In this document: positions 24,392 through 46,557 of the stretch, in pieces | Position numbering within the stretch: the first letter of the stretch is position 1 | How the letters are laid out: every line of letters begins with the position of its first letter | NCBI GenBank assembly: GCA_003649205.1 | Contig: QMRC01000006.1 | Span: forward strand, 13,190 to 77,189 | From: Thermoprotei archaeon | GTDB lineage: Archaea > Thermoproteota > Thermoprotei > Thermoproteales > B15-G16 | Direction: 5' to 3' | DNA length: 64,000 bases | Translations under genes and position numbers: made by a program | Notes under the pieces: generated by a model | Told to the model about the DNA's origin: nothing | What the model saw: the letters and a program-made list of their open reading frames with translations, nothing else | The model's database searches: none

Positions 24392-24395
24392 TTCG

Positions 24396-26671: not shown

Positions 26672-26725
26672 GCACTCACAACATAGACCAAGCTACAATG
26701 TAAAAAATAAGTATTAACGCAATTG

Positions 26726-32233: not shown

Positions 32234-33574
32234 GTGCACTTTATGAGATTTGGAGAGAAGCTAGGTGCGCTCTTAATGGTTGAAGCTGCATTTGCTGGAG
32301 CATACGTTAGCATTACTCGTGGTTTCTTCTACTTGATGATGGTTGAACGTGGTTATAGTGTTAGGGATCTAGCTGTAGTTAGCCTAGTGGCTTCACTATC
32401 TATGGTGCTTGTGAGCTACCTACTGTACAGGAGACCTGAGCTACTTGAGAGAAGCGTCAAGGTTAAACTCCTCACCATGCACATACTCGAGAGAATTTTC
32501 TGGTGCATTCTACCATTCATAGTGTTTAGATTTAGCTACATGTTTATCCTCCTAGCTTACTCACTAGCACAGGTCATTACTGTACCTGTGTGCGTGCTGC
32601 TGAATACTGTGTTACTCTCTCAGCTAAGTGAGGACGAGTTCAAGAGCGTTACTGGGTGGAGGAATTCCCTTGGCCTAATCTCGTCATTAAGTGCTCAGCT
32701 ATTGGCGGTCCACGTGTTAGCATCTATGAGGAGTCCAGTACGGTACTACTACCTTTACACAATTGCTCTACTCCTTGGCTTCCTCTCATGGATTCCACTT
32801 ACTATTGCTAGAGTTAGGGACTATGTGAGGAAGGTTAGTGGTTACTCTAGTGAGGAGGTTGAGGTTATTGCTGGTACTACGTTCATATACTTGGTCCTTC
32901 TACTTGGATCAGCTAACATGCTCAGCATCCTCTGGGTACCATATCTGGTGAATGACCTAGGTGCACCGAGCTACCTAGTAGCTATCATGAACGCTGCTGG
33001 TACGATCTCTGGTTCCATATCGTCAGTTCTCTGGATTAGAGTTGTGTACAGGTACTATCTCTGTGGACTAGTTATTGACTCAGCTGTACCAACCTTAGTC
33101 ATGACATTACCACCAATATTCCATCCAGCTCTAGCTGGGCTCTCAGCTTTTGGCTTTACAGCAGGTAACTTCATTGGCTACTTCATGTACTCGAAGATAG
33201 CGGAGAAAAGCGACCCCATAAAGAACTCCACTAGGTTAGCTGCTGCTAATGCACTGGGTCTCCTAATATCATTGATACCAGTTGCTATCTTGAATTTGAG
33301 CGCTAGGGATGGACTAATTCTCTGTAGTTGCTTGAAGGTACTAGCTCTCGTAATTGCTCTGCTGAGTATTAAGGAAGTATCGCCACTTCCTGATCCACGT
33401 ATCAGGACTTATAGTAAGGTAATCTTCGAGACAGGTATGTTCTCATACAGGTTAACGCTCGAATTCACTACTCACTACGTACTATATACCTTGAAGATAG
33501 TAGCTGTTGTCCTTATAATGCTCTTCATGTACTTCATCTACAGGACAGTTACCATACTGATTAGTGGTGCGTAG
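32234..33574 (+). CDS. polytopic membrane protein (MFS-like transporter)
   Basis: 446 aa with about 12 hydrophobic segments in two halves. No strong signature motif. Confidence 0.5.
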   Translation: MHFMRFGEKLGALLMVEAAFAGAYVSITRGFFYLMMVERGYSVRDLAVVSLVASLSMVLVSYLLYRRPELLERSVKVKLLTMHILERIFWCILPFIVFRFSYMFILLAYSLAQVITVPVCVLLNTVLLSQLSEDEFKSVTGWRNSLGLISSLSAQLLAVHVLASMRSPVRYYYLYTIALLLGFLSWIPLTIARVRDYVRKVSGYSSEEVEVIAGTTFIYLVLLLGSANMLSILWVPYLVNDLGAPSYLVAIMNAAGTISGSISSVLWIRVVYRYYLCGLVIDSAVPTLVMTLPPIFHPALAGLSAFGFTAGNFIGYFMYSKIAEKSDPIKNSTRLAAANALGLLISLIPVAILNLSARDGLILCSCLKVLALVIALLSIKEVSPLPDPRIRTYSKVIFETGMFSYRLTLEFTTHYVLYTLKIVAVVLIMLFMYFIYRTVTILISGA

Positions 33575-34235
33575 TATGGAGTTATTGAACATGAGCAATG
33601 GCGAGGTAGCATTTGAGAGAATAATTCAAGCATTTAAGTTGGCACTAAATGAATTGATAGCACTGGTACCTGTAGTACTAGCATCTGTCCTCATAGTTGC
33701 ACTCATGCTAGTAATTGCTAAGTACGTAGGTTCTCTTGTCAAGAGGATACTGAAGGTAGTTGGTCTAGATAGGATACTTGAGAGGTACGTAGGTACACCA
33801 CCGATATCTGTCGAGAACTTCATCGTCGTATTCATACAGCTGGGCTTCGTAATACTTGGCGTAACAATATCCGTGACAGTATTCGCACCTGAGTACCTAG
33901 CTACCTACAACATGTACCTATCCTATATACTGAGGTTGATGTCGGCTGTAGCACTCATAATAATAACGCTCTTCTGGATAGAGGTACTAGTGAATAAGAT
34001 TCGTGGTGAGAGCAAGGTAAAGGCATTTGCCTCACTAATAGCCTTCCTCCTAATACTCACCTTCATAATCGACGTAACAGCACTATCTGAAAGCGTTAAG
34101 TCATCACTCGTATTCGGAATATCCCTTGGACTTGGATTGACAATAGGAGTATTCTCCATATGGTACTTCATGCATGAATACCTTGAGCACTACATCAGCA
34201 GAAAGCATGGAGAGAAAGAGGTCAGACAAGGCTGA
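33564..34235 (+). CDS. membrane protein; its last 5 codons plus stop form attL
   Basis: 223 aa with several TM helices. The 3' end GAG GTC AGA CAA GGC TGA coincides with the 17-bp direct repeat. Confidence 0.5.
   Translation: MVRSMELLNMSNGEVAFERIIQAFKLALNELIALVPVVLASVLIVALMLVIAKYVGSLVKRILKVVGLDRILERYVGTPPISVENFIVVFIQLGFVILGVTISVTVFAPEYLATYNMYLSYILRLMSAVALIIITLFWIEVLVNKIRGESKVKAFASLIAFLLILTFIIDVTALSESVKSSLVFGISLGLGLTIGVFSIWYFMHEYLEHYISRKHGEKEVRQG
34219..34235. repeat. attL: 17-bp direct repeat AGGTCAGACAAGGCTGA
   Basis: An exact copy occurs at 45006-45022. It lies 10 bp upstream of the integrase gene. Confidence 0.75.
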
Positions 34236-34245
34236 TTGAGTTCTC

Positions 34246-35409
34246 ATGGAAGAAATCACACCTGATAGCCCTATCTATCAGGTGAGAATAGGTCTCAATT
34301 CGATGGAGTTGCTGAAGCACTTTGAGAGTTGGTTAATTGCTCAGAACCTGTCCGTGGCTACGGTTAGGTCTCATGTTAGACAGGTTAGGTCTTTCCTCAC
34401 GTGGTTTGGTAGGTCTATCGAGGATTTGAGTAGTTTCGATATTGCGTGTTACCTAGCTGAGTGCCGTAAGCGTGGTCTATCTGAGGCTAGTGTGAATCGC
34501 TATGCTTCTGCTCTCAAGAAATTCCTGAGGTTCCTAGCTAGTTACTTCAGAGCTAGGAGAAGGGTTGAGTTAGCTAATTACTTTGAGCAGGTGTACCGTG
34601 AGGTCAAGGTACCTAAGTACGACCTAGTTGAGGTCAGCATTAAGCGACACATGGAGCCTGATACAGCGAGGAAAGTCATAGACTTAATTCATGACCCCTA
34701 CTGGAAGTGCTTTTTCGCTGTGCTGTATGAGACAGGTCTGAGGTTGAGGGAGCTTAGACAGGTCAAGGTAAGTGATGTTCACGAGAACAAGCACGGGTTC
34801 GAGATAGTTGTCAGAGATAGCAAGACACCTGAGGGAGTTAGGAAAGTGTACGTGGTTGAGTACTATCAGCTACTGAGGTACTACCTAGAGCATGTACGTC
34901 CGAGAGATAGCGAGTGGTTGTTCCCTGCTAGGAGAGACCCAAGGCAACCAATCTCCGAGAAAGCAATCTACAGCTTTCTAAACCGCTTCAGAAAGCGGAC
35001 AGGTATCGTGATTAGTCCACACCGCTTTAGACACGCTAGAGCTACTGAGCTTTACCGCAAGGGAGTATCTGAGCAGTCGTTAATGAGGTTGTTTGGTTGG
35101 AGGACAAGGACAATGATTGATGTCTACAGTAAGCTTTCACAGCGAGATGTGGAGTCTGAGCTACTGAGCAAGGTCTACGGGCTATCCCCTGTAGAGAGTG
35201 AGAGGTCTCAGACTCGTAAGTGCCCGAGGTGTGGTGCTGAGGTAATACCCACAGCTAGGTACTGTCCATACTGTGGTCTAGCCCTAGATATTGCGTCAGT
35301 ATTAGGCAAAGAGGAACAGGTACGGAAATACGCAGAGCTCATTGAAGCACTGCTGAGGTACCTAGAGGAACACCCAGAGTACCTGTCGAAACTATTCTCA
35401 AGGACTTAA
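34246..35409 (+). CDS. int: tyrosine recombinase/integrase with C-terminal zinc ribbon
   Basis: N-terminal SAM-like core-binding domain. Catalytic blocks are ETGLRLRELRQVKVSDV (Arg), HRFRHARATELY (H-x-x-R) and LFGWRTRTMIDVYS (Tyr). The C-terminal tail carries CPRCGAEV..YCPYCG. Confidence 0.9.
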   Translation: MEEITPDSPIYQVRIGLNSMELLKHFESWLIAQNLSVATVRSHVRQVRSFLTWFGRSIEDLSSFDIACYLAECRKRGLSEASVNRYASALKKFLRFLASYFRARRRVELANYFEQVYREVKVPKYDLVEVSIKRHMEPDTARKVIDLIHDPYWKCFFAVLYETGLRLRELRQVKVSDVHENKHGFEIVVRDSKTPEGVRKVYVVEYYQLLRYYLEHVRPRDSEWLFPARRDPRQPISEKAIYSFLNRFRKRTGIVISPHRFRHARATELYRKGVSEQSLMRLFGWRTRTMIDVYSKLSQRDVESELLSKVYGLSPVESERSQTRKCPRCGAEVIPTARYCPYCGLALDIASVLGKEEQVRKYAELIEALLRYLEEHPEYLSKLFSRT

Positions 35410-35562
35410 AAGCGGACATGAAACACAGGCAGAGAACACCAAGACCCGCCCTATAGTCCAGAGGAAATGTTGCCTGAATTCAACAATAGTCTAATATGCG
35501 TATACGTGTGAGTGAACAGCGAGCGAGGTAATACACCACTTGAGGATGAATAGGGGCTCCTC

Positions 35563-35631
35563 GGGGGATGATGAAGGGCTTAGCGGAGCGACCCCGCAAG
35601 GGGGTATGGCTGGACCAGGCTAGCTGACCCC
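35563..35631 (+). ncRNA. GC-rich structured RNA candidate with external C/D-box-like K-turn (element-borne)
   Basis: GGGG-AUGAUGA (C box 35568-35574) ... CUGA (35624-35627)-CCCC terminal stem, with an internal CCCC-GCAA-GGGG tetraloop hairpin (35592-35603). The internal D'/C' boxes are not recognisable. Confidence 0.35.
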
Positions 35632-35753
35632 TACCCCCTCGCCCCGTGATAATGGGTTATTATCACCAATATTTAAGTTTCTATGCAATTACAGTGAAAT
35701 TACCATGGTTACTTTCTCGTGAGGGGGTTTAAGAACCCTTGATACGTCTTTGC

Positions 35754-36101
35754 TTAGCCTTTCTTTCTGATTAGTCCTCCTATTGCTCCTCCTATCATTG
35801 ATAGGAATGCTGAGGCTAGCATCATGAATATTATTGCTAACCCTGCTAACCCACCTGCCCATGCTCCTAGGAATCCAGCTACTGAGAAGCCTAGTACTGT
35901 CAGCACTATTGCTGCTAGTATTCCTCCAATGATTCCACTGAGGAACCCTGCTGCTGCTCCTCTACCTGCTCCTCCTCCAGCTACTAGACCTGCTATGAAG
36001 CCTCCAAGTACTGGTGCGAAGATGTGTAGTATGGGTGAGAGTACGGCTGTAGCTAACATACCTGCAAAGACACCAGCTATGAAACTCAGTACACGACCCA
36101 T
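35754..36101 (-). CDS. Gly/Ala-rich small membrane protein
   Basis: 115 aa with 3-4 TM helices made of G/A/I/L repeats and a basic C-terminus. The opposite-strand ORF is a Pro/Ala shadow. Confidence 0.5.
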   Translation of the reverse strand: MGRVLSFIAGVFAGMLATAVLSPILHIFAPVLGGFIAGLVAGGGAGRGAAAGFLSGIIGGILAAIVLTVLGFSVAGFLGAWAGGLAGLAIIFMMLASAFLSMIGGAIGGLIRKKG

Positions 36102-36371
36102 GTAGGGAAAACCCCGAGGAAACCAGATACAGAGAGGACATAAAGCAGTTCAGAACATAGAGAGCAATGAACCTAGCAACCTCAGAGGACAGAAAACAAG
36201 AACGCTCCTCCGGTCGGTGATGAATACTTGTACTTTTCTCTCGGTGACTTTCCTCAAGGCACTAAATAAGAAATTGCTCTACTCTACAGTGGTATGGATT
36301 CTGAGGATTTTTGGATTGGTTTTCTCCTTGGTTACAGTACTGGTCTTATTCATGCGAAAAACTTAACAACT

Positions 36372-36755
36372 TCAGAACTTGTCTTCAGGCTCATTTCCTG
36401 TTCCTTCATGCTCAGTGAGTTGTTGGGTACTAGACTTAATGAGTTCTTCAGCTCTTTGGAGAAGTTCAGCGACTTCACGACCCTTCTCAGTGAGCTCAAT
36501 GTACCTAAGACCGTGCTTGGTATACGTCCTAACAAGACCGTACTGAAGACAGGTACTGAGGGCTCTGTAAGTACTGACAGGTGAGATACCGTATCTCTGA
36601 AGTTCTCTAATGTGCATAGCTCTACCTGTTTTGTGAAGAATTAGCAGCAATTTAATTCCCGGTCTACCTAAGTCATCAGCTAGAGCTGACATTTTCCTCT
36701 GTCGTTTTCTGGTGATAAACCTAATAACGATATCTTCGAGCATTCGTAACCTCAT
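36372..36755 (-). CDS. winged-helix transcriptional regulator
   Basis: LLLILHKTGRAMHIRELQRYGISPVSTYRALSTCLQYGLVRTY..YIELTEKGREV is a wHTH (ArsR/MarR-like) pattern. It is transcribed divergently from the RHH-led operon. Confidence 0.65.
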   Translation of the reverse strand: MRLRMLEDIVIRFITRKRQRKMSALADDLGRPGIKLLLILHKTGRAMHIRELQRYGISPVSTYRALSTCLQYGLVRTYTKHGLRYIELTEKGREVAELLQRAEELIKSSTQQLTEHEGTGNEPEDKF

Positions 36756-36786
36756 TCTCAGTCTATACCCGATTTAGAGGTATCAC

Positions 36787-36850
36787 GTAATAATATTACA
36801 ACGCTATATCTCGAAACTGATAAATTGTTATAACGTTACAGAGTTGTAAC
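36787..36850. promoter_or_regulatory. divergent promoter/operator region with inverted repeats
   Basis: GTAATAATATTAC (36787-36799), palindrome GTTATAAC (36827-36834) and GTTACA-gagt-TGTAAC (36835-36850). All lie between the wHTH gene and the RHH gene. Confidence 0.4.
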
Positions 36851-36853
36851 AGG

Positions 36854-37051
36854 GTGAGAGAGGTGCCTAAGAGTAAGGTGCCTATGGTCTTGGTTACCTT
36901 CCATATCCCGATACCACTCCTTAGAGAACTTGACAGGTTGGTGGAGGAGGGTAAGTTCCCGAGCAGGAGCGAGGCGATAAGGCACGCAATAATCCAACTC
37001 CTAGCTCGTGAGCGTCAAAGAACACAAATACACGAGGTGTTGGTAGCGTGA
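36854..37051 (+). CDS. ribbon-helix-helix (CopG/Arc-type) DNA-binding protein
   Basis: MVLVTFHIPIPLLRELDRLVEEGKFPSRSEAIRHAI is a textbook RHH pattern. The true start may be the ATG at 36884. Confidence 0.7.
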   Translation: MREVPKSKVPMVLVTFHIPIPLLRELDRLVEEGKFPSRSEAIRHAIIQLLARERQRTQIHEVLVA

Positions 37052-37296
37052 CCATTGTCAACTATGTCGAGGTAATTAGGAACATCATACTCAATGCTTT
37101 GAAGGAGCATGGCTACATTAGTGACCTAGAGCTTGTTAGGGCTGTCAAAGAGGCTACGGGACTCAGCTACGTAGACTTTGCTCCCATTCTTGAGCAGGTA
37201 CTGAGTGAGCTAATGAGGTCTGGCGCAATTAGACGTGTAATGTCAGCAAGCAACCCGAGAAAGGTCGAGCATGGGTGGGAGCTGTGTACACAATAA
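37048..37296 (+). CDS. hypothetical protein (element)
   Basis: 82-aa ORF coupled to the upstream RHH gene by a GTGA overlap. Confidence 0.5.
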   Translation: MTIVNYVEVIRNIILNALKEHGYISDLELVRAVKEATGLSYVDFAPILEQVLSELMRSGAIRRVMSASNPRKVEHGWELCTQ

Positions 37297-37640
37297 AGCC
37301 GAATGGATTCTACCTCAGGTTGGTTTTGGATGCACTGAAGTACTGTGCTAGGACTGAAAGAGGCTCTATTGTGTCTATTTACCCAAAGAAAGTCGCTAAG
37401 TTAAATGGGTACAGTGTTCGTGCATGTGGGAGGTATAGAGATGACAGTGAGGTAGAGAGGTCGCTATCCCCTGCCGAGCTATCTATCATTAGGTACTGGC
37501 TGGATTACCTCTGGGTCAATGGGCTGTGTAGCCGTGAGAAGACTAGTCGTGACAGGTGGAACTACGTATTCCCGAGGGAGAACTTGCCTAAGGCTATCAA
37601 GCTACTTGAGGAGGTGCTCAATGGTGAAGTACAAGATTGA
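37275..37640 (+). CDS. hypothetical protein (element)
   Basis: 121-aa ORF in the co-directional early-gene string. Confidence 0.5.
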   Translation: MGAVYTIKPNGFYLRLVLDALKYCARTERGSIVSIYPKKVAKLNGYSVRACGRYRDDSEVERSLSPAELSIIRYWLDYLWVNGLCSREKTSRDRWNYVFPRENLPKAIKLLEEVLNGEVQD

Positions 37641-37761
37641 GGAGATAGTCAAGGAGTTGAAGGTTGCTCTCAGGGATAGAGAACTCAGAGAAGCATTGCT
37701 GAAGCACTTCTCCAACAACCCAAAGGCTCAAGCAATCATACTACTCCTGTCAGGTGAGTGA
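37621..37761 (+). CDS. small hypothetical protein (element)
   Basis: The ATG at 37621 (MVKYKIEEIVKELKVALRD..) overlaps the previous stop. The longer track ORF from 37519 overlaps the preceding gene extensively. Confidence 0.35.
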   Translation: MVKYKIEEIVKELKVALRDRELREALLKHFSNNPKAQAIILLLSGE

Positions 37762-38000
37762 GCATGATTGAGCTGAGTTTCAAGACGAAGCGGGACTTCG
37801 ATAACTGGGTTAAGGCGCTGTATGACTTCGGTTCGAATCACTGTGTTGAGCCTGTCGTCATCAAGCTAGATGGTAATGACCTCTACGACAGGTACATGGT
37901 CTGCATTGTGTACCATGCTTGGACTGAGGAAGGTGCTTACGCAGTGACCTGTCTAGCCCGCATAGTAGCGATAGTGTACAGGGAAGGTGAGCAGAAGTGA
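37758..38000 (+). CDS. hypothetical protein (element)
   Basis: 80-aa ORF with a 4-bp overlap with each neighbour. Confidence 0.5.
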   Translation: MSMIELSFKTKRDFDNWVKALYDFGSNHCVEPVVIKLDGNDLYDRYMVCIVYHAWTEEGAYAVTCLARIVAIVYREGEQK

Positions 38001-38179
38001 GTCGCTACCACGGGCACAAGGTAACTATCACGATTATTGCGACAACAGGTTCTGGACTACCGACAGGTGAGCGAAAGAGCGATTTCATTAGATTCATGGT
38101 CGAGCAGGTACTGGAACGTGAGCTTTCTAAGAGGCTCCGTGATTTCCGTGTCCTCAAAGTCATGGTGAAGGTGATGTAG
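37997..38179 (+). CDS. hypothetical protein (element)
   Basis: 60-aa ORF with a GTG start overlapping the previous stop. Confidence 0.4.
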   Translation: MSRYHGHKVTITIIATTGSGLPTGERKSDFIRFMVEQVLERELSKRLRDFRVLKVMVKVM

Positions 38180-38258
38180 ATGGTTCCTGCTACTACTACC
38201 TATTCTATTTCTAGTAATTCGTTTAGACAAAATACGCGGGACATTAAACGCGGTTCAG

Positions 38259-38383
38259 ATTGGAACCAATGTTCCCTCTCAGAGGAATCATTGAAACCAA
38301 TCATTGGAATCAATGTCAGTGGTATGATTGGAACCAATGATTGGAACCAATCATTCCACTCGCTTAGTCTCATTGGTTCCAAA
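38259..38383. repeat. iteron-like array of ATTGGAACCAAT half-palindromic 12-mers
   Basis: Copies lie at 38259-38270, 38290-38301 (ATTGAAACCAAT), 38303-38314 (ATTGGAATCAAT), 38327-38338, 38340-38351 and, inverted, 38372-38383 (ATTGGTTCCAAa). The region has no convincing ORF. Confidence 0.7.
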
Positions 38384-38394
38384 AACGGAGAGAG

Positions 38395-38718
38395 GTGTTG
38401 AGTATCCCCCGAATAACTATCTACATCCATGAGAGCGATTGGGAAAAGCTGACGAAAATAGCTGAGCAGAGAGGACAATCAATGTACAGCATAGTGAAGC
38501 AAGTAGTACTTGAGTTCCTGAAGCTAAGTAACCCAATTGTTGCTCATGGTAAGCTTTCTAGGGATTTAGCTACCTGTCGGAGCATTATCAAGCGATTTGG
38601 TTGGTGTGCTCTCTGCATACATGCTGAGGTTGTTGGTGATAGGTTAGTCTGCAGAAAGACAGGCAAAGTCATAGAAAAACCCATATGGCAATGCCCACAC
38701 CCCATACCCAAGGTGTAA
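38395..38718 (+). CDS. RHH-like N-terminal domain protein with Cys-rich C-terminal region
   Basis: ITIYIHESDWEKLTKIAEQRGQSMYSIVKQVVLEFL has a beta-strand/helix/helix pattern. The C-terminal region is CALCIHAE..CRKTG..CPH. It lies directly downstream of the iteron array. Confidence 0.5.
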   Translation: MLSIPRITIYIHESDWEKLTKIAEQRGQSMYSIVKQVVLEFLKLSNPIVAHGKLSRDLATCRSIIKRFGWCALCIHAEVVGDRLVCRKTGKVIEKPIWQCPHPIPKV

Positions 38719-38727
38719 ATCATGCTT

Positions 38728-38751
38728 TTTACACAGCTGCAGCTGTGTAAA
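38728..38751. promoter_or_regulatory. perfect 24-bp palindrome TTTACACAGCTGCAGCTGTGTAAA
   Basis: Read directly from the sequence. It is flanked by an AAATCAT / ATGATTT inverted pair and GTAAAT repeats, in the 76-bp gap upstream of ORF 38795. Confidence 0.5.
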
Positions 38752-38794
38752 TGATTTTTACTCACTGACAGGTGCGTAAATTTGGTGAGAATTC

Positions 38795-39163
38795 ATGTCC
38801 GAGATGGAGAAGTTAATTAGGAACCTGAACATACTGCGAAACTACTTCAGCAAGGTACCACCTGAAGTCATTGAGGCTCTCATGTACTTTGAGGATAGGT
38901 TCTTCACTGAGAAATACCATGTTGTTCGCTCTAAGACAGGTAGGGAGTATCGCTACAGGTACCTCTACATCAGGTTGAATGACTACAGGACACTAGGTTA
39001 CTTCAGGATAAATGATAGCAATGATGAATTGCTGCTACACGAAATTAGGCAGGTCAAGGCATTTTCACAAGCACTACTACAGTACATAGCAATGCTCAGA
39101 CACAGCAAACTAGCAAACCTCACCAAAATTTACTCAAGGACCTTGAGTAAAAACAACCAATAA
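38795..39163 (+). CDS. hypothetical protein (element)
   Basis: 122-aa ORF with no recognisable motif. Confidence 0.5.
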   Translation: MSEMEKLIRNLNILRNYFSKVPPEVIEALMYFEDRFFTEKYHVVRSKTGREYRYRYLYIRLNDYRTLGYFRINDSNDELLLHEIRQVKAFSQALLQYIAMLRHSKLANLTKIYSRTLSKNNQ

Positions 39164-39224
39164 CACATCAGCAATTGGGGAAATTGAATTGGGGTGATGC
39201 CCCCTGAACCTCAAGGTCTATTTC

Positions 39225-40211
39225 GTGAAGAAAACTAGGCAATACGAGGTCTATGAGGGCTCTAGGAGAATCCTCAGGACTAAGGTACATGCAAAAGCTC
39301 ACGAGTACCTATCGAAACAAATCAATTCAAGTTTTGAGTTCTACTTTGTTTGTTGCAATAGGGAGCACCTGTTAGCATGTTCACGTTTCTTTGAACTCAC
39401 AGGTCGCAGGCTCAATGTGTTGATTAGTTACAACTTCATACGTGACAGGTACCTCACACAGGTGCTTCAGCAAGTTAGACCACACCTAAGCAAAGTCATG
39501 ATTGATTCAGGTGCTTTCCATGTACTTATCCGCAAGGTACCCCTGGAAAAGTTCCAGAGCTACATAGGTGAGTACGTGAATTGGCTCAACAACCACACAG
39601 AGCTTTACGACTACTGTGTCGCACCTGACGTACCCTGTGATGAACGACCCGCAGAAAAAATCCAGAAACTACCAAACAGGTACAAGATAGAGCTAACCAT
39701 AGCTAACACAGTTCACTGGATAGATAGGTTGACAGACCCTCGCAAGGCTGTGGCTGTAGTTCAGGGTTATTTCGTGAATGAGTACCTGCTCTGTGCTGAG
39801 AAGCTGAAAGAACTCGGGCTCACAACAGCAAAGACAGGTGTCGGCTCTTTATGTGTCAGGAAATACAGTAGACAACAAGCACGTGAAGTACCACAGATAC
39901 TAGCTAGCATAAGACAGGTCTTACCGTCATGGGTGAAACTTCACGCATTCGGTCTTCAGCTAGATTTCTTACCGACCTGTCTCAAGTACCTACACAGCTC
40001 AGACAGTGCCTCATGGCAATTAAGTTACTCAAAGTTCAATAGGATACGAATAGCGAACCTGTCGACAGGTCAAACAGTTGAGCTTGATTTAGTTAGTCAT
40101 GGCGGAGCGAGGAAAAAGAACCTAGACCAAGTCACGATATACACATACAACCTCTTAGCCTACTGGAATAGAGTTCAGCAACTAACGAGACAGGCAGCAC
40201 AGACAAAATAA
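39225..40211 (+). CDS. TGT-fold transglycosylase, DpdA-like (candidate DNA or tRNA 7-deazaguanine transglycosylase)
   Basis: The order of blocks matches tRNA-guanine transglycosylases. These are MIDSGAFHV (Asp94, cf. DSGGFQ), AVVQGY (cf. VQGG), GVGSLC, KLHAFGL (cf. xLxGxG) and HSSDSASW (Asp260, cf. FDS/FDC). There is no PUA domain and no Cys-Cys-Cys-His zinc site, as in the short phage/island DpdA proteins. Confidence 0.6.
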   Translation: MKKTRQYEVYEGSRRILRTKVHAKAHEYLSKQINSSFEFYFVCCNREHLLACSRFFELTGRRLNVLISYNFIRDRYLTQVLQQVRPHLSKVMIDSGAFHVLIRKVPLEKFQSYIGEYVNWLNNHTELYDYCVAPDVPCDERPAEKIQKLPNRYKIELTIANTVHWIDRLTDPRKAVAVVQGYFVNEYLLCAEKLKELGLTTAKTGVGSLCVRKYSRQQAREVPQILASIRQVLPSWVKLHAFGLQLDFLPTCLKYLHSSDSASWQLSYSKFNRIRIANLSTGQTVELDLVSHGGARKKNLDQVTIYTYNLLAYWNRVQQLTRQAAQTK

Positions 40212-40230
40212 AGTAAGTGTTGAAAACTGC

Positions 40231-40995
40231 TCAAGTCCCCATGTTCTCTATCTCATGTCCTGTAGGGTATAGGTTCAGTTTCTTTATGTACTTGTACACT
40301 GTTTGACGTGAAACACCGAGTGCTCTAGCTATATCACTTATACTGTAACCTTTCTTCAACATATCCTCAATAGTCTTCTCCCTATTAGCAGTCTGGATAG
40401 CTACCTGTAAGTCCATGAACACCTTCTCAACAAAGAGCCTCCTCATTTCCTGATACTTCACATAGATGTCGTGGTCTAGCTTAGGCACGAAGGTATCTAC
40501 ACCAATTTCCTTCACCACGAACTTACCCGTAGGAGTCCACGTAAACCTGTAGATGTGTGCCTCTCTCTCACCTTGCTTACTCTTCCTAATGTGTACATGT
40601 ATCCAACACATCTCACGTAGTGCTCTTAAGAGCAGGCGATAGGTAGGTACCGTGAATATGACAGCACCTGTCACAGTCCTAGCAACCTCAAGGAACTTTA
40701 CAAATAGCTGACGGTCTTCTTTAAGAAAGTCATATTTGCTTATCCACACACCAGCATCATCATAGCACAGACACTTAACACGCTTACGATACCTAAGACA
40801 CTCCCTAATAATTGGGAAAGACTGCTTAACATCGAAGAATACGTAGTTGAGAGCAGTCTCCCTACAATACAGCTCACTCAAGACCTTGATAGCGTAGGTA
40901 GTCTTACCAACCCCTTGCTGACCCTGAATAACAATAACCTCAAATCCATTGTTCCTGAAAGCACGCTCAATTATCTTAGTTAGGACAAACGGCAT
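40231..40995 (-). CDS. P-loop NTPase with C-terminal helix-turn-helix
   Basis: Walker A QGQQGVGKTTYA, Walker B-like CLCYDDAG, and a C-terminal GYSISDIARALGVSRQTVYKYIKKL (resolvase/HTH_7-like). Confidence 0.7.
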   Translation of the reverse strand: MPFVLTKIIERAFRNNGFEVIVIQGQQGVGKTTYAIKVLSELYCRETALNYVFFDVKQSFPIIRECLRYRKRVKCLCYDDAGVWISKYDFLKEDRQLFVKFLEVARTVTGAVIFTVPTYRLLLRALREMCWIHVHIRKSKQGEREAHIYRFTWTPTGKFVVKEIGVDTFVPKLDHDIYVKYQEMRRLFVEKVFMDLQVAIQTANREKTIEDMLKKGYSISDIARALGVSRQTVYKYIKKLNLYPTGHEIENMGT

Positions 40996-40998
40996 ACC

Positions 40999-41301
40999 TC
41001 ACTCCTCCTCAATCTCCTCCTCACGACCAACAGGTATGAACCTCTTACGACCCATTACATGCGTTATAGTCCTGAAGAACTTAGCAAACGATAGCAGAGC
41101 TGAGTAACCACGACCGCCCTCAGCTAACCTCAACTCAAGGTAAGGTATGATGAATGAGTCTCTCAAGTCCTGAAGGTTGTACCTGTCGCATATGAAGAGC
41201 AACGTAGCTATCTTACGAGCCTCACCATACTGCAACCTAGTTAAGCGAAGTATGTTCCCCGAGGTAAGAGCCTCAATTAGTTCCTCTGACATGAGCCTCA
41301 C
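40999..41301 (-). CDS. hypothetical protein (element)
   Basis: 100-aa ORF with an acidic tail, coupled to the neighbouring genes. Confidence 0.5.
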   Translation of the reverse strand: MRLMSEELIEALTSGNILRLTRLQYGEARKIATLLFICDRYNLQDLRDSFIIPYLELRLAEGGRGYSALLSFAKFFRTITHVMGRKRFIPVGREEEIEEE

Positions 41302-41302
41302 C

Positions 41303-41758
41303 TCACAGGTGAATGATACCGAACTTCACGAGCATGAACATGATGTACGCACCTATGATTAACCCACAAATCAGAGCAATGATGACAGGAGTAGCCCTAA
41401 CAGGTACCTTCTCCGTTAGCAGAGCCCTCAGTACCTGTCCCTTGATAATCTGCGATATAGTGTCACTATCAATGTAGGGGTCTTGATATTGACCACAGAA
41501 GTACACTATCTTTCTGACAGGTGCCCACACCTTCACGTCTCTAAACACCCTAACCCTACCCCCAGCAAGCACCAGCTTCCTCTCCGGATTGAGCAATTTA
41601 GCAGGCGTAATCTCGACATGCTTATCGTTCACGATAATAGCTATGTGCTTTGACCTGAAGATACGTCCTTCAGGTCTCGCTAGGAACATCATGATGAATG
41701 TGACAGGTATAGCTACGCAGTATATTGCGACTAGGATAGGGCTCAACATAGGGCTCAC
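41303..41758 (-). CDS. membrane protein (element)
   Basis: 151 aa with N- and C-terminal TM helices. Confidence 0.5.
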   Translation of the reverse strand: MSPMLSPILVAIYCVAIPVTFIMMFLARPEGRIFRSKHIAIIVNDKHVEITPAKLLNPERKLVLAGGRVRVFRDVKVWAPVRKIVYFCGQYQDPYIDSDTISQIIKGQVLRALLTEKVPVRATPVIIALICGLIIGAYIMFMLVKFGIIHL

Positions 41759-42280
41759 CTACAGAGTCTTCTCAGCTTCAGCAATGAGCTTGTTCAGGAC
41801 CTGCTCAACCCTCTCAATTCGCTTAGCTAACTCACTGAGCCTATCCTCACTATGATTTGAGCCTAGCTTACTCACGTCGATAGCGTCTAGGAATATCGAG
41901 AGCGGAACAGCAATAGCGTACTCAAACCTCTCAACCTTACCACTCTGCTCGACAGGTATCGTAACTTGCTGAGCCTCCCTCTCCCTCACCAAAATCAGAA
42001 CACGGTCAGGATTCCTAACCGCAGAGACAGGTAGCTTAGACAGGTACGGTCTCCTACCTGTCTCACTTTCGGACGTGTACGGTCTACCTCTCTGAAAGTG
42101 AAGTACTAAGCACAGAGCACCGAGACTAGCTAGAGCAATGAAACCAACCCACTTCAGCGTAAAGACCGCTCCAGAGGATATCTTAGCAGTCAGTGGTGAC
42201 AGGTATGGGTCATACCAAATCAAGTACATGACTGCACCTGTGAGCAGTGCTGTGCTCAGGTAAAGGAAACGAGTACTCAC
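41759..42280 (-). CDS. membrane protein (element)
   Basis: 173 aa with three N-terminal TM helices and a C-terminal coiled segment. Confidence 0.5.
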   Translation of the reverse strand: MSTRFLYLSTALLTGAVMYLIWYDPYLSPLTAKISSGAVFTLKWVGFIALASLGALCLVLHFQRGRPYTSESETGRRPYLSKLPVSAVRNPDRVLILVREREAQQVTIPVEQSGKVERFEYAIAVPLSIFLDAIDVSKLGSNHSEDRLSELAKRIERVEQVLNKLIAEAEKTL

Positions 42281-42405
42281 TTACAACCCACCTCACTTAT
42301 GTAAACTTTTTCACAAAAACCATAAGGTCAACTTGCGAGATATCCTGAATAATCACTGAACACGGAGCAAACCTGAGACAGGTCGAAAAGTAGGAGGTGA
42401 AGTAG

Positions 42406-42765
42406 GTGGACATAGACCTAGGGAACATCCTGAGAGCTGTCCTGTTTGTAGCCCTAATACCCACGCTATTCGGAGCTATAGCTGGATTCGTTGACCCTTC
42501 ACTACAACCAATGATACAGCCCCTACTCAGCCTAGTACCAATGCTCATAATCCTCAACCTAATCAAAGACCTGTTCTCAGAAGCTGGAGCAAAGGGATTC
42601 GTCAAGATATTCGATATCCTACTGCTCGTAATGATGTTACCTGTCCTAATCAACATGTTCGGAGCAGCCACAGGACAAAACGAAGCACTAGCACAAGTCT
42701 CAGGACTCCTACAGCAACTCCTACCAATCCTACTATTCATCAAGCTCATCGAAGAGATGGTTTAG
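42406..42765 (+). CDS. small membrane protein (element)
   Basis: 119 aa with 3-4 TM helices. It is immediately upstream of the large glycoprotein gene. I prefer it to the antisense track ORF 42297..42749. Confidence 0.5.
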   Translation: MDIDLGNILRAVLFVALIPTLFGAIAGFVDPSLQPMIQPLLSLVPMLIILNLIKDLFSEAGAKGFVKIFDILLLVMMLPVLINMFGAATGQNEALAQVSGLLQQLLPILLFIKLIEEMV

Positions 42766-42786
42766 TTCCTTCGAGGTGATTAAGCT

Positions 42787-44541
42787 ATGAAACCCAAGCC
42801 CCTTTTTGCAATCTTAACAGTACTCACTCTAGTGCTCATAGTGGCGGTTGTTAATGCTGGTGAGTACACGCTATACGATGTACTTCAGTACGCTCATGAG
42901 GTACATGTCTTCGGAAAGACATACAACACAGCAAGTTATGGCACCACAACTTACTCTGGGACATGGAATCTAACTGATGTTGTGTCGGGGAGGAAAGTTA
43001 CATTTGGCTACAGGCAATACCTACAAGACCCAGATAGCTCCGACACAATCGTTATTGTGTTTCAGAAGAATACAGCTATCGAGGTCGGTACTGGTAGCGG
43101 GAAGTGTGTCTACGGTAAACCTGTCGTAATTACGTATGATACTGAAACAGGAAGGAGGACTATGTACTACATTGATGGCGGTGAACTGAAGAAAGTAGGT
43201 GAATTCACTGGTGGTACCTACGTCTACTGGAACGGTACAAAGTTATGTCAAGCACTACGTTTCAAGGACTGGTTAGATTTCCACAAGTTCTTTAACAACA
43301 CATGCATGTTAATACTCCCAGACATCACGACATACGACTACAGGATAATTGATGGGTCTTCCGAGCTATTAAAGGATAAGTGTGGTGGAAATGGTTTCCA
43401 CACCCTCATTATCTTCGGTGGTGAGTACCTAAACAAATCGATAATTGTTGAAGTTGCTGGAGCCTACGGAATCAAGAACATAACGCTCACTACAGAACTC
43501 AACACAGTCTACACGATTGACCCAAAGCACTTGAAGTTAGCTGTGTTCACAGGTAACCTAACGGAGACGCTATCGAGGGCGAGCCAGAGCACAGAGGAAA
43601 GTACACAGGAAAGTACAACTAACACGACAAACGAGACCTCAACACCAACCACAGCACCAGAGACGAAGGTGTACAAGGTCACGATACATGTCTACGATGT
43701 GGATACCAATGAGGAAATCACATCAGCAATGGTTAAGGCGGGTTGGTTCACGAAGACAGGTTCACCTGTTACCTTTGAGTTCAAGTGGAAGGAACCACAG
43801 TGGTTACCTATCTCAGCTAGTGCTACAGGTTACAAGTCCTTCAGCACAACTATCTGGGTCGATACCAACATGACGCTGTGGGTAGGGCTAGTCAAGGAAA
43901 CCTCGAACAGCACCGAGCAATACAGTAAATTACTGAGGCTCGGTGTCTCAATTGCGGGTGTTGGTTCAACTCCATATTGGGCTCAGGAAAACAAGACATT
44001 CACAGAGTGGGCTAATGAGGTTGAGCAGTTACTATCCTCATCACAGGCTCCTGAGGTTAAGTATGAGACTACGTGGTATGGTTTGAAGATAGTCGCTGTG
44101 AAGGTACCTTCAGGTAGACCAGCATACGGAGTAGCGACTATTGTCGCTGTTAAGAAAGGATTTCTCGGTACCCTAACATGGGAAGAAGAACTCGGTACTG
44201 TGCAAATAGTGAATGGTACGGGTTATTTCCATGTTGACTACGAGACAATCAAGAACAAGCTACAACTCAAAGAGTGGGGAGGGGAGTACTTCTACGGTTT
44301 CAAGATTGTATGGAAGGTCGGTGACCTAGACCCAGAGGTCGAGGTTGTACCTGTCAAGAATACATGGACGCCTGTCTACATTCAGGTGAATGAGCAGACA
44401 GGAACCTACTCAGCAACAACACTACCACAGACAGCATTAACGAATGTCGGAACATCACTAACACAGATGCTCATAACCCTACTACCACTGTTCATCATAT
44501 TCGCACTCATTGGAGCTATTACAGGTCGTAGAAGGCGATAG
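42787..44541 (+). CDS. large secreted, C-terminally anchored glycoprotein-like protein (candidate virion/envelope or surface protein)
   Basis: Signal peptide MKPKPLFAILTVLTLVLIVAVVNA. Many N-x-S/T sequons. Thr/Ser-rich linker ESTQESTTNTTNETSTPTTAPETK. C-terminal TM helix plus RRRR stop-transfer. Confidence 0.6.
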   Translation: MKPKPLFAILTVLTLVLIVAVVNAGEYTLYDVLQYAHEVHVFGKTYNTASYGTTTYSGTWNLTDVVSGRKVTFGYRQYLQDPDSSDTIVIVFQKNTAIEVGTGSGKCVYGKPVVITYDTETGRRTMYYIDGGELKKVGEFTGGTYVYWNGTKLCQALRFKDWLDFHKFFNNTCMLILPDITTYDYRIIDGSSELLKDKCGGNGFHTLIIFGGEYLNKSIIVEVAGAYGIKNITLTTELNTVYTIDPKHLKLAVFTGNLTETLSRASQSTEESTQESTTNTTNETSTPTTAPETKVYKVTIHVYDVDTNEEITSAMVKAGWFTKTGSPVTFEFKWKEPQWLPISASATGYKSFSTTIWVDTNMTLWVGLVKETSNSTEQYSKLLRLGVSIAGVGSTPYWAQENKTFTEWANEVEQLLSSSQAPEVKYETTWYGLKIVAVKVPSGRPAYGVATIVAVKKGFLGTLTWEEELGTVQIVNGTGYFHVDYETIKNKLQLKEWGGEYFYGFKIVWKVGDLDPEVEVVPVKNTWTPVYIQVNEQTGTYSATTLPQTALTNVGTSLTQMLITLLPLFIIFALIGAITGRRRR

Positions 44542-44544
44542 AGC

Positions 44545-44847
44545 ATGACTAACCGCTACGTCTACCTTGGAAAGAAAGTGAAGGACATAGGCAAGAAAGG
44601 ACTAGACCGACCAAGCGAGTACCTAGCAATAGCGAGAGCTATAGCACAAGACTACAAGGCTGGTAGGATAAGTAAAAAGACTGCTCACGGACGCTTTTTA
44701 CTACTTTACAGGCTCGTGGATAAGAATAGCAAGCTGAAGGTACCTAAGTCAGTTAAGGAACGTCTCAAACGCAAGATTAAGGAAATCTGGATGAAGACCA
44801 TTGGAGGTGGGAAGGTGGCTCGAAAGAGGAAAAGAAAGAAAAGGTAG
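44545..44847 (+). CDS. small basic protein (possible nucleic-acid-binding)
   Basis: 100 aa, Lys/Arg-rich, with the C-terminal tail ARKRKRKKR. Confidence 0.5.
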   Translation: MTNRYVYLGKKVKDIGKKGLDRPSEYLAIARAIAQDYKAGRISKKTAHGRFLLLYRLVDKNSKLKVPKSVKERLKRKIKEIWMKTIGGGKVARKRKRKKR

Positions 44848-45003
44848 GCTCAAGTCACATCACCTGTATGTCGCTCTAACTACCTAATTTCTTGAGCTTG
44901 CTCTAGTCCTCAAGAATTCTTTACACATGTCTCATGTCCTGCGACCTGTCACCTAGACCTGAACTAGCTCAAGACAGAAGGTGGGTGACTTCTCTCAACT
45001 TAT

Positions 45004-45060
45004 TTAGGTCAGACAAGGCTGAATTCTTCACGGATCTGCCTCGCCTGGGCTCATCATAAA
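45004..45060 (-). ncRNA. C/D box sRNA (dual guide) whose 3' end is the att core
   Basis: The minus strand reads AUGAUGA(C, 45051-45057)-GCCCAGGCGAGG(12)-CAGA(D', 45035-45038)-UCC-GUGAAGA(C', 45025-45031)-AUUCAGCCUUGU(12)-CUGA(D, 45009-45012)-CCU. Confidence 0.75.
45006..45022. repeat. attR: 17-bp direct repeat AGGTCAGACAAGGCTGA
   Basis: Exact copy of 34219-34235. It lies inside the 3' part of the minus-strand C/D box sRNA. Confidence 0.75.
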
Positions 45061-45101: not shown

Positions 45102-45860
45102 CTAATCAGCAATCACATACCTAACCTCACCAGTGAAGCACCACTCACTCTCATCACTACGTTTGAGATCCACATCTACACACTTCTGCTGAAGATACAG
45201 TATTAGTTCTCGACTCGGGATTGCCTCACTAGGTAGTGAATCAAGAACACGTCTATACTGTACAGCTATGATTCCATCGAAGTACTTACTTAGCTCCTCA
45301 ACTGACTCAACAACCTTACTCTCTGGAATTAACTCAATACCGAAGAGGATGTAAGCAATGAAGCTAACCTCATCACCATAAACTTCACGACATTTCTCCC
45401 TAAGAGCATTCAACCTCACAATCTCACTCTGAGGAATACCCTTACACAACACAGCATTTCTCAGGTACTCATCCCAAACCTCAATACCAACCCTAATAAC
45501 GAGCCTACTAGGTTTAAGCAGCTCAAGCACCTGTCTCACAGAGTCAAAACTTAGGTACTCAGGTCTAGACTCAATATCCACAATTCTACCACAGGTAAAT
45601 CTAGAGAGCTTGAGCACGGTATCCAGAGGTAGCTCAAAGAATGAACCACCATTAAATACAGTAATTCTCTCAATACTAAACCTCAGGGTAGCATCTTCCA
45701 GAAGCGACAATATCTTGTCATTTGTCTGAATTACATCGGATAGTGAGTTACCTGCCTCAAGGAAGAAGGGACAGAAGACACATCTACCCCAACGACATCT
45801 AAATCCCTTGAGTATCACGATAGCTCTCTTCCTAGATCTCTCAATCACAACACCTAGCAC
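45102..45860 (-). CDS. RaSEA-like radical SAM protein (archaeosine formation partner of ArcS)
   Basis: Cys triad CRWGRCVFC (C-x4-C-x2-C, Elp3-like spacing) near the N-terminus, about 250 aa. It overlaps and is co-directional with the ArcS-like gene, the arrangement known for ArcS/RaSEA. Confidence 0.55.
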   Translation of the reverse strand: MLGVVIERSRKRAIVILKGFRCRWGRCVFCPFFLEAGNSLSDVIQTNDKILSLLEDATLRFSIERITVFNGGSFFELPLDTVLKLSRFTCGRIVDIESRPEYLSFDSVRQVLELLKPSRLVIRVGIEVWDEYLRNAVLCKGIPQSEIVRLNALREKCREVYGDEVSFIAYILFGIELIPESKVVESVEELSKYFDGIIAVQYRRVLDSLPSEAIPSRELILYLQQKCVDVDLKRSDESEWCFTGEVRYVIAD

Positions 45861-46557
45861 TGAGAATCTCCCTCAAACCACTAATTAACTTACTCAAACT
45901 AGTTGGAGTTATGAGTATGAGATCTGGATCATCGTAGTAACCACCTAGAGATACCTCATCAAGCTCATGAGGAGGTACCTCATTAACTCTCGCAGCTAAG
46001 TTCTTAACCTCAATACCTAGCATGGAACAAGCACGCTCTAGAGCAGCATAGCTATCTGAATCCCACCTTAGATACGACACAAAGCACTCATAATAACTCC
46101 TAAATCTACTCAGGAACAATCTCAATCTCTCACAGGTAACCTCCCTATAGAGTACCTTCACTTCACTAGTTTCATACTTAGGATTCCAGTCATACGCACA
46201 ATAGGGGTAGTACTCTTCAAGCTCTCTCGGTACGATACCGGCATTCGTTATAATGACTTGATGAATATCCTCGTAGTACCTACCTAACGACTTCAAAGCC
46301 CTAATTATGAAGTAGTGTATGTAGGATTGAGAGTACGGCTTACCGTAAGCACATGGTAGGAAGAGACAGACTCTATACCTCTTCCTTGGCTTCCACTCAG
46401 TTAGTAATCTCTTAAAACCCTCTTCAAAGAATGGGTGCTTAAGGTACCTAAGACCTACACCTCTGAGGAATTCCCTACCATCACCAGACCAGATAAGTTC
46501 GTGACCATCCCAAATAACGTACAAGCTAGATCCCTCAAGAAGTTCTCCACAAACCAA
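45841..46557 (-). CDS. ArcS-like protein (stand-alone DUF5591/ArcS catalytic-type domain)
   Basis: LPCAYGKPYSQSYIHY is an exact match to the ArcS signature PC-x3-KPY-x2-S-x2-H. At 238 aa it has no PUA domain. Confidence 0.75.
   Translation of the reverse strand: MVCGELLEGSSLYVIWDGHELIWSGDGREFLRGVGLRYLKHPFFEEGFKRLLTEWKPRKRYRVCLFLPCAYGKPYSQSYIHYFIIRALKSLGRYYEDIHQVIITNAGIVPRELEEYYPYCAYDWNPKYETSEVKVLYREVTCERLRLFLSRFRSYYECFVSYLRWDSDSYAALERACSMLGIEVKNLAARVNEVPPHELDEVSLGGYYDDPDLILITPTSLSKLISGLREILSARCCD

Follow-up and report, generated by a model that had tools for sequence, protein, structure and literature searches.

A small integrated element in a Thermoproteales-like archaeon, most probably the provirus of an undescribed archaeal virus lineage

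A 64,000-nucleotide stretch of contig QMRC01000006.1 from a Thermoprotei archaeon (in what follows the window, whose own numbering is used throughout) carries, between positions 34219 and 45022, a segment with exact endpoints, an intact tyrosine integrase gene and 19 predicted proteins. That this segment is an integrated mobile element we regard as practically certain. In our favoured reading, to which we give a probability of roughly 0.7, the mobile element is intact and most probably a provirus, that of a temperate or chronic virus from an archaeal virus lineage not described before. Judged by sequence similarity, what is new here is the union in one element of a fusellovirus-type ATPase, a thalassapleovirus-type integrase and a DpdA of a separate small clade.

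The endpoints are given by a 17-bp direct repeat, AGGTCAGACAAGGCTGA, that an earlier first-pass annotation of the window had pointed out as exact and that occurs precisely twice in the window, at 34219-34235 (attL core, plus strand) and 45006-45022 (attR core, plus strand). No third copy was found in the 64 kb even when two mismatches were allowed, and none of 100 dinucleotide-preserving shuffles held one. Identity ends at 17 bp: the bases on either side are g and t at the left copy, t and a at the right copy. The left core is at the same time the 3′ end, five codons plus stop (..VRQG*), of a host gene for a 223-aa MscS-like membrane protein (33564-34235, plus strand; the public gene call has 214 aa and differs in its start), a coincidence that the first-pass annotation did not mention. 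Insertion is at the last 17 nt of this host gene, with the core duplicated, and the host gene retains its last five codons and stop. Directly after the right core comes host-type sequence. Neither a tRNA gene nor any Rfam family was found in the window, so the target is not an RNA gene. With both cores the element measures 10,804 bp, and as a circle it would measure 10,787 bp; all ORFs (open reading frames) of its 19 proteins are uninterrupted, 87% of it is coding, and its G+C content is 45.7% against 43.3% in the flanks.

A search for an empty site in related genomes, which the first-pass annotation had proposed, succeeded. Protein searches with the right flank, taking one genome per species, led to an uncultured Thermoproteales metagenome-assembled genome (MAG; L003 below) at 88% protein identity, with which the sequence after the right core can be aligned. 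The two flanking genes have neighbouring orthologues in L003, where the core occurs once and ends the orthologue of the membrane-protein gene. In blastn, window 55856-45006 is matched by L003 1-10855 (89.7% identity) and window 34235-31655 by L003 10839-13443 (87.8%); what the two alignments have in common is the 17-bp core and nothing more, and no match in L003 was found to the element interior, window 34236-45005. Left arm, one core and right arm are thus contiguous in L003, free of element DNA. The opposite outcome, the same gene order in relatives with no empty site, had been named in advance as evidence against integration and is contradicted by L003. Since L003 is empty at the site while its flanks are about 89% identical, the insertion is young compared with the divergence of the two lineages.

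These observations bear directly on the possibility that the segment is a decaying, immobile genomic island whose repeats are left from an old insertion, which we consider very improbable. The cores are identical, the 19 ORFs are all intact and tightly packed, the integrase has its full catalytic residues, and the absence of the element from so similar a pair of flanks in L003 speaks for recent insertion. What such an island would explain is that the element has been seen integrated only, with no attP junction or free copy in the collections scanned. The same integrated copy is on record in three assemblies, possibly of the same or related samples: ENA ERZ27227320 k141_41376 (261 kb), the NCBI 'Thermoprotei archaeon' MAG, and a short Logan contig across attR. 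For the reverse states we predicted the junctions CTCAACTTATTT-AGGTCAGACAAGGCTGA-TTGAGTTCTCATGG for attP and GGAGAGAAAG-AGGTCAGACAAGGCTGA-ATTCTTCACGG for attB. A core-pattern scan yielded 23 matches in JGI metagenomes, all by chance and none with the window flanks, and none in IMG/VR; the three further bases shared by one metagenome match (L051) were likewise set aside as chance. The scans were without power for the circular form: no junction type, attL and attR included, appeared in either collection, so the source organism is not in those collections.

The integrase gene (34246-35409, plus strand, 387 aa) starts 10 nt past the left core, as the first-pass annotation had indicated, and matches Pfam Phage_integrase (3e-24), Phage_int_SAM_1 (2e-13) and Zn_Ribbon_1 (1e-7). 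The protein has an N-terminal SAM-like domain, a catalytic domain with the complete set R166, H259, R262, W285 and Y294, a C-terminal zinc ribbon (C326, C329, C340, C343) and a helical tail. Its score against the NCBIfam XerA model is 114 bits, where the cut-off of this equivalog model is 220. Among 50,697 virus records only ThalV2 and GacPV1 (Geoglobus acetivorans pleomorphic virus 1) match over 95% of its length, through the zinc ribbon to the C-terminus, at 26% identity (gp01 of each, E 6e-29 and 2e-28 respectively), and the BLASTP match to the SSV-type integrase of SMF1 is not significant (E 0.02). By these comparisons the integrase is XerA-like and not SSV-type.

The att site lies outside the integrase gene, and because that gene is not split by integration, the system is not of the SSV split type and follows the class II pattern instead. 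In archaeal integration of class II (pNOB8/lambda-type) the integrase gene stays intact, attP and attB share a short core and the target gene is restored; sites at the 3′ ends of protein-coding genes are known, although tRNA genes are preferred (PMC8371274). The element resembles this class in its intact integrase gene, its short identical core and its reconstituted target gene. It differs in that insertion is at the 3′ terminus of a protein-coding gene rather than in one of the preferred tRNA genes, and in that its integrase, with its matches to XerA and the thalassapleovirus integrases, is probably closer to these than to that of pNOB8. Integration and excision would then run by the lambda/pNOB8 pattern, the XerA-like integrase acting on the 17-bp core of attP and attB and recombining attP with the 3′ end of the host gene.

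All 19 proteins were compared with Pfam, PHROGs, NCBIfam and collections of viruses and plasmids, as well as with a local comparator set of nine fuselloviruses, four Archaeoglobi pleomorphic viruses and contigs with DpdA contexts. Relatives were detected for five (integrase, ATPase, DpdA-like protein, a winged helix-turn-helix (wHTH) regulator and the first ribbon-helix-helix (RHH) protein), and the other 14 are ORFans. The gene content listed in the first-pass annotation is present in full: a string of small ORFs led by an RHH protein, a divergent wHTH regulator, iterons, an ATPase with a helix-turn-helix, four small membrane proteins, a 584-aa protein and a basic 100-aa protein. Its suggestion of an uncharacterised family holds broadly, 14 of the 19 proteins having no detectable relative, and so does its remark on the lack of a recognisable capsid protein, inasmuch as no capsid or spike hallmark of any known family was detected.

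The ATPase (254 aa, 40231-40995, minus strand) had been left unassigned. It belongs to the AAA+ family of the fusellovirus B251 'DnaA-like' proteins (phrog_5484, 5e-41) and carries a C-terminal HTH_7 domain (Pfam, 4e-10), which is an addition to that family. Walker A (GQQGVGKT) lies at residue 25 and Walker B (YDDAG) at residue 78. In tblastn it matched SMF1 at 35% identity (2e-31) and the satellite plasmid pSSVx at 2e-15; in the virus collection it matched 72 records, 71 of them archaeal (57 or more SSV, APSV1, ATV, GacPV1 and ThalV2), the last being a phage that matched in the HTH only. Aligned jointly with both types, it falls with the SSV type (Walker B YDDAGVW; 38%/32% identity) and lies farther from the type of the pleomorphic thalassapleoviruses (WDDFALH; 22-24%). 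Scans of IMG/VR with the protein and with a profile of it found no relative nearer than the known SSVs. Proteins of the B251 family have been linked to replication and/or packaging (PMC9608457), and their arCOG is virus-associated and common in integrated 'dark matter islands' (PMC4158269). The earlier observation that the element has no recognisable Rep stands to the extent that no prim-pol, Rep or MCM was detected; it is not distinctive, fuselloviruses having only B251 as a replication candidate. Replication would be by host enzymes, as is assumed for fuselloviruses.

Among the features that speak for a virus is the arrangement of the candidate particle genes. A 119-aa protein (42406-42765, plus strand) has four hydrophobic helices by hydropathy, forming a duplicated two-helix hairpin whose halves, 1-58 and 59-119, are similar to each other (z 5.6; 0 of 500 shuffles), and is a candidate for the main membrane or capsid protein of the virion. 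Directly downstream is the gene for a 584-aa ORFan (42787-44541, plus strand), a predicted type-I membrane glycoprotein on the evidence of hydropathy and sequons, with a signal-like segment at 6-24, a Ser/Thr-rich linker at about 262-295, a C-terminal transmembrane (TM) segment at 561-579 and an RRRR tail; its N-glycosylation sequons number 12, compared with 4.4 +/- 1.8 in shuffles. It has no Pfam or PHROG match, and the only protein found for it was itself, both in a word index of 5.8e9 clustered proteins and in an exhaustive phmmer search of 1.84e9 representatives. We regard it as a candidate spike or receptor-binding protein. Next comes a highly basic protein of 100 aa (44545-44847, plus strand; 34 K+R, net +27) without homology to SMF1 VP2 or to any family, a candidate genome-condensing DNA-binding protein that would be like SSV VP2 by position and charge. 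Together the three look like pleolipovirus VP3-VP4 or fusellovirus VP1/VP3-VP4-VP2, with homology tests by BLASTP, hhalign and Pfam negative throughout.

Upstream of the ATPase gene and in its orientation stand three further genes (40999-42280, minus strand), presumably a morphogenesis or membrane module, for proteins of 173 aa (one TM segment and a C-terminal helix), 151 aa (N- and C-terminal TM segments) and 100 aa (soluble, with an acidic tail). The 151-aa protein matches the B277 profile weakly (hhalign 28%, E 6e-4, 43 columns; Smith-Waterman z 4.85) and the acidic-tailed protein scores 0.7% in hhalign and z 2.5 against A153, weak hints that the order 151 aa, 100 aa, ATPase may recall the fusellovirus order B277-A153-B251. 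Another small membrane protein, glycine-rich and 115 aa long, is encoded apart from these (35754-36101, minus strand; Pfam DUF5518 3.7e-10; three hydrophobic segments by hydropathy). It was tried as a pleolipovirus VP3 and rejected (hhalign 0.2%), and in local alignments with VP1 and VP3 of SSV1 and SMF1 its z was about 0.

From composition and gene order we infer structural roles for these proteins. The B251-type ATPase with its HTH, the three small proteins upstream of it, the 119-aa and 584-aa proteins and the basic protein would build and load a membrane-containing particle, which may be spindle-shaped or pleomorphic. In its size, its 87% coding density, an integrase beside att, the succession of multi-TM, anchored glycoprotein and basic protein genes, and an ATPase in an operon of its own, the element is like small archaeal viruses, and we think it likely to be a virus rather than a plasmid or satellite.

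One specific alternative is a divergent member of the Fuselloviridae, in which the capsid protein VP1 would have its counterpart, in duplicated form, in the 119-aa protein, the VP4 end filament in the 584-aa protein and VP2 in the basic protein. The likenesses to SSV1, SMF1 and also pSSVx extend beyond the ATPase, which is present at 30-38% identity to the SSV and SMF1 proteins, belongs to the absolute core of that family and is closest to the SSV type (38% to SMF1). They include a circular double-stranded DNA genome (11-17 kb) that encodes a tyrosine integrase, regulators of the RHH and wHTH kinds (both weakly matching SSV regulators here), strings of small overlapping ORFs, the lack of an identifiable polymerase, primase or Rep, and a set in which a small hydrophobic protein of structural type is joined by a large glycoprotein with an anchor and by a basic DNA-binding protein. 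The hairpins of the 119-aa protein each hold an LxP motif reminiscent of spindle-virus VP1 (Smith-Waterman z 2.5-4.4 against VP1, which is marginal), the weak B277 match and the gene order around the ATPase have been mentioned, and at 591 aa the end-filament protein of SMF1 comes close to the 584-aa protein in length.

Fuselloviruses have nine absolute-core genes (PMC9608457). Only one of them, B251, was detected here; phmmer against nine SSV genomes found none of A154/A153, B277, A82, A92, C166 and B115 and added nothing else. The 119-aa protein gave no match at E <= 10 to Pfam VP1_VP3 (PF06281) or His1_capsid, where the SSV1 VP1 control gave 1.6e-20, and reached 4% over 16 columns against VP1/VP3 in hhalign. 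For the 584-aa protein the comparison with SSV VP4 gave BLASTP E 0.13 (SMF1) and hhalign 0.06%. To the undetected VP1/VP3, VP4, A82, A92, C166 and B115 are added an XerA-like integrase that remains intact on integration, in contrast to the split SSV integrases; a target at the 3′ end of a protein-coding gene and not in a tRNA gene; the extra HTH_7 of the ATPase; the presence of DpdA; and a Thermoproteales-like rather than a Sulfolobales host. Membership of the Fuselloviridae is on this evidence rather improbable. Equality of ORF lengths with SMF1 (82, 121 and 151 aa) was considered as a sign of homology and rejected, BLASTP finding nothing.

The integrase leads to a second group, the pleolipovirus-like 'Thalassapleoviridae' (AvPV1, GacPV1, ThalV2), whose hallmark is a VP4-like spike/fusion protein and whose known members infect marine hydrothermal hyperthermophiles (PMC10919331). 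A crenarchaeal relative of these viruses would have in the 119-aa protein a VP3-like protein, in the 584-aa protein a fusogen of the VP4 type and in the ATPase the conserved NTPase. Homology to the ThalV2 and GacPV1 integrases extends from end to end, zinc ribbon and helical tail included, and here as there the integrase gene adjoins att. The ATPase aligns with the NTPases of ThalV2 (gp07, E 1e-15), GacPV1, ApPV1 and AvPV1, so that the conserved NTPase is present by homology, though closer to the SSV type. A small multi-TM gene followed by one for a TM-anchored glycoprotein with a signal peptide repeats the VP3-VP4 arrangement, and integrated proviruses, of 13-18 kb in that group, occur in hydrothermal hyperthermophiles. 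The hallmark fusogen itself was undetected: the 584-aa protein gave nothing in BLASTP against thalassapleovirus VP4 and 0.2% in hhalign (4-sequence profile), although thalassapleovirus VP4 recovers haloarchaeal VP4 by plain tblastn, and the 119-aa protein gave 0.1% against the VP3 profile. No rolling-circle-replication Rep is present, the ATPase operon is divergent and not downstream, module order and orientation differ more generally, and the host belongs to a different phylum. We hold this relationship, too, to be doubtful. With B251 alone of nine core genes and the wrong integrase type on the one side and VP4 undetected on the other, the element is, as judged from the genes that define them, in neither of the two nearby families.

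A further alternative is an integrative plasmid or virus satellite of the pSSVx/pSSVi kind, without particle genes of its own, which would be packaged by a helper via the ATPase module, or in vesicles, and whose surface proteins would be cargo serving surface modification or exclusion. There is no capsid or spike homology, a B251-type ATPase is found in the satellite pSSVx, and its pairing with A154 has been linked to helper-dependent spread (PMC9608457). The iteron array with its RHH protein is plasmid-like, and there are earlier proposals of small integrated elements that resemble satellites and carry fusellovirus genes (PMC4158269). Family searches detected no plasmid replication protein (prim-pol, Rep or MCM) and no conjugation or mobilisation gene, however, and about 4.6 kb of the element (>40%) is given to closely packed genes for membrane, secreted and basic proteins, in an arrangement like that of small enveloped archaeal viruses. 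The integrase's full-length relatives among virus and plasmid records are, moreover, all viral. A plasmid or satellite is an unlikely identity for the element, if one to be taken seriously.

The transglycosylase gene at 39225-40211 (plus strand), which the first-pass gene list omits, encodes a 328-aa protein of the DpdA/TGT family of guanine transglycosylases, as assigned from Pfam, NCBIfam, PHROG, fold and active site. It matches NCBIfam DpdA at 9.6e-8 (far under the equivalog cut-off) and phrog_1279, annotated as queuine tRNA-ribosyltransferase, at 4e-11. With ten metagenomic relatives of 42-47% identity it forms a clade whose 11 members all match Pfam DpdA, the best at 1.7e-13. An AF2 model built from the clade alignment (pLDDT 82.8, pTM 0.86) had as its top four Foldseek matches in the PDB a TGT (5utj), the archaeal arcTGT (1iq8), another TGT and DpdA (7ui4), at TM 0.49-0.59, with generic TIM-barrel aldolases close behind. 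In the DpdA of S. Montevideo, D95 and D256 are the general acid/base and nucleophile aspartates and D130 serves base recognition, alongside H181-G182 and G206-G207 (PMC10164549). Invariant in the clade are D94 (in DSGAF), D129, Q180-G181, G205/G207 and D260 (in SSDS), which correspond to these residues at near-identical spacing. The protein is without the PUA and C-terminal domains of arcTGT (1iq8, 577 aa), which fits DpdA and is no proof.

Taken from sequence and model, the 328-aa protein is quite likely a functional DpdA-type enzyme, predicted to insert a 7-deazaguanine base into DNA. Viral DpdA enzymes place 7-deazaguanines in DNA and so protect it from restriction, and are known from phages and from the archaeal Ligamenvirales and Bicaudaviridae (PMC6884629, PMC10516641). 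The element shares with DpdA viruses (phages CAjan, 9g and Rosebush; archaeal Ligamenvirales and STSV2) a TGT-family DpdA with three catalytic aspartates; it has no genes for preQ0 synthesis, and a singleton dpdA of this kind is also found in some phages and archaeal viruses that draw on the host pool. It differs in that its DpdA is of a separate small clade and sits on an integrating element of about 11 kb, the reported archaeal cases being Ligamenvirales and Bicaudaviridae. Among deposited viruses tblastn reached only a Methanofastidiosa virus (5e-15, to an annotated queuine tRNA-ribosyltransferase), one unannotated gut phage contig and the cluster-B mycobacteriophages. By analogy, the enzyme would swap guanines in the element's DNA for 7-deazaguanine from the host's archaeosine pathway (preQ0 or a derivative), which would protect the DNA against restriction, the role expected of it.

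Several points count against the provirus reading as a whole. No virion protein was identified by homology: the tests against fusellovirus VP1/VP3/VP4 and pleolipovirus VP3/VP4 reported above, for the 119-aa and the 584-aa protein alike, were negative, and a single-sequence AF2 model of the 584-aa protein has pLDDT 35, unusable for fold comparison. The B251 family occurs also in the satellite plasmid pSSVx, so an own particle is not proven by the ATPase, and the roles that we give to the ATPase and the iterons are inferences. No whole-element relative was found in IMG/VR or in reachable genome and metagenome contigs, and the core scans, with the lack of power already noted, gave no circular attP junction. 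As to DpdA, the 328-aa protein scores 27.0 bits against Pfam DpdA (PF23859), exactly the cut-off; phmmer and profile searches of its clade against PDB sequences found nothing, the link to TGT and DpdA coming via the fold search; and its substrate and activity are predictions.

There is a real chance that the element founds a new family. A bolder form of this, which we put forward tentatively as possible, is that a new virus family with membrane-containing particles infects Thermoproteales-like hyperthermophiles and that the element is its first representative, with particle proteins unrelated or anciently related to those of fuselloviruses and pleolipoviruses, linking both families through its ATPase and integrase, and making 7-deazaguanine DNA by a singleton DpdA and host archaeosine precursors, possibly with the ATPase-HTH in place of DpdB. 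The known viruses of Thermoproteales-like archaea from hydrothermal sediments are few, most knowledge coming from cultured Sulfolobales and haloarchaea. The element is an exactly bounded example with an empty site, and its joining of a fusellovirus-type ATPase with the integrase type of Archaeoglobi pleomorphic viruses bears on module exchange between spindle-shaped and pleomorphic archaeal viruses. If the assignment of DpdA is true, 7-deazaguanine DNA modification would reach the smallest archaeal mobile elements and a host that should supply preQ0. The compact candidate virion proteins, having no homologues, are good targets for structure determination. Current understanding is not overturned; the element is a well-supported new lineage and adds no new principle.

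Some observations on DpdA neighbourhoods may be added. Bacterial DpdA needs a separate ATPase, DpdB. On two of the contigs with relatives of the element's DpdA (L009 4886-7614 and L010 8105-11087) the DpdA gene is convergent with a gene for a 177-aa HTH_7 protein, whose HTH has 43% identity over 35 aa to the C-terminal HTH of the ATPase; in the window HTH_7 is fused to the AAA+ ATPase, the gene of which is convergent with the DpdA gene (39225-40995). That the 177-aa proteins are truncated ATPases was rejected, the HTH alone matching. A functional pairing of ATPase-HTH and DpdA is conceivable on this analogy. Another DpdA relative (42% identity) is on a 46-kb filamentous-virus-like contig (L013/L014/L015; JGI 3300005265; IMGVR_UViG_3300005265_000744) that also encodes Sulf_coat_C, a coat domain of rudivirus/lipothrixvirus type, glycosyltransferases, a methyltransferase and a Cren7 homologue, and further relatives sit on small contigs resembling mobile genetic elements.

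The presumed regulatory part of the element lies between the DUF5518 and DpdA genes. A 127-aa wHTH regulator (36372-36755, minus strand; phrog_12817 transcriptional regulator, 1.5e-6), weakly matching ORFs of SSV4, SSV5 and SSV2 (phmmer 2e-5 in the local comparator set), is divergent from an operon of overlapping small ORFs (36854-38179, plus strand). This begins with a CopG-type RHH protein (36854-37051; Pfam RHH_1 4e-9; weak match to the RHH of SSV1 and SSV7) and continues with ORFs of 82, 121, about 46/80, 80 and 60 aa, which have no family matches; the ORFs of the operon appear in public gene calls as well. These are presumably early or regulatory genes, and the divergent wHTH/RHH pair would control lysogeny and the early operon.

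An iteron-like array at 38259-38383 consists of six 12-mers of the type ATTGGAACCAAT, five direct and one inverted, with spacings of 31, 13, 24, 13 and 32, all within 125 bp in a 215-bp gap upstream of a second RHH gene; elsewhere in the 64 kb the motif has only one match, with two mismatches, at 52470. The array is a candidate operator and/or replication origin. The second RHH gene (38395-38718, plus strand) encodes 107 aa with a Cys-rich C-terminal half (5 Cys), matching Pfam RHH_1 at 7.5e-4 (19.8 bits, cut-off 20.5) and the Arc-like repressor family phrog_582 at 0.005; its product is a candidate for binding the iterons, with which it would form the operator and/or origin. Between it and the gene for a 122-aa ORFan (38795-39163, plus strand; no Pfam or PHROG match) lies a 29-bp tandem repeat in 2.1 copies (38722-38781) with CAGCTG palindromes, sequence ATGATTTTTACACAGCTGCAGCTGCGTAA, and with perfect 12-nt palindromic arms, TTTACACAGCTG/CAGCTGTGTAAA. 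The right end of the element is non-coding for 158 bp (44848-45005) and has an imperfect 27-nt inverted repeat (44882-44908 and 44956-44982). In the circular form it would lie directly upstream of core and integrase gene, a candidate attP arm by position.

In the host flanks, two genes to the right of attR (45102-46557, minus strand) weakly match RaSEA (43 bits, cut-off 212) and ArcS alpha/DUF5591 (54 bits). The pair is also present at the empty site (L003 9337-10759) and therefore belongs to the host; its adjacency to a DpdA-bearing element is probably a coincidence. By similarity, the RaSEA-like and ArcS-like genes suggest that the host makes preQ0. Farther right, a 583-aa protein (46838-48589), conserved in L003, has an N-terminal part resembling the alpha subunit of indolepyruvate-ferredoxin oxidoreductase (97 bits, far under the cut-off) and a C-terminal 2x[4Fe-4S] ferredoxin domain. 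The left flank (about 24200-33600), colinear with L003, holds a molybdenum-cofactor cluster (MoaE/MoCF, MoaC, a MoaA-like radical SAM protein and two MoeA-like proteins) along with a ferredoxin, a DUF362 protein and a 446-aa multi-TM protein. Each flank also has a short tandem repeat, at 24348-24376 (12 bp, 2.4 copies) and at 50691-50746 (21 bp, 2.7 copies, 68% matches).

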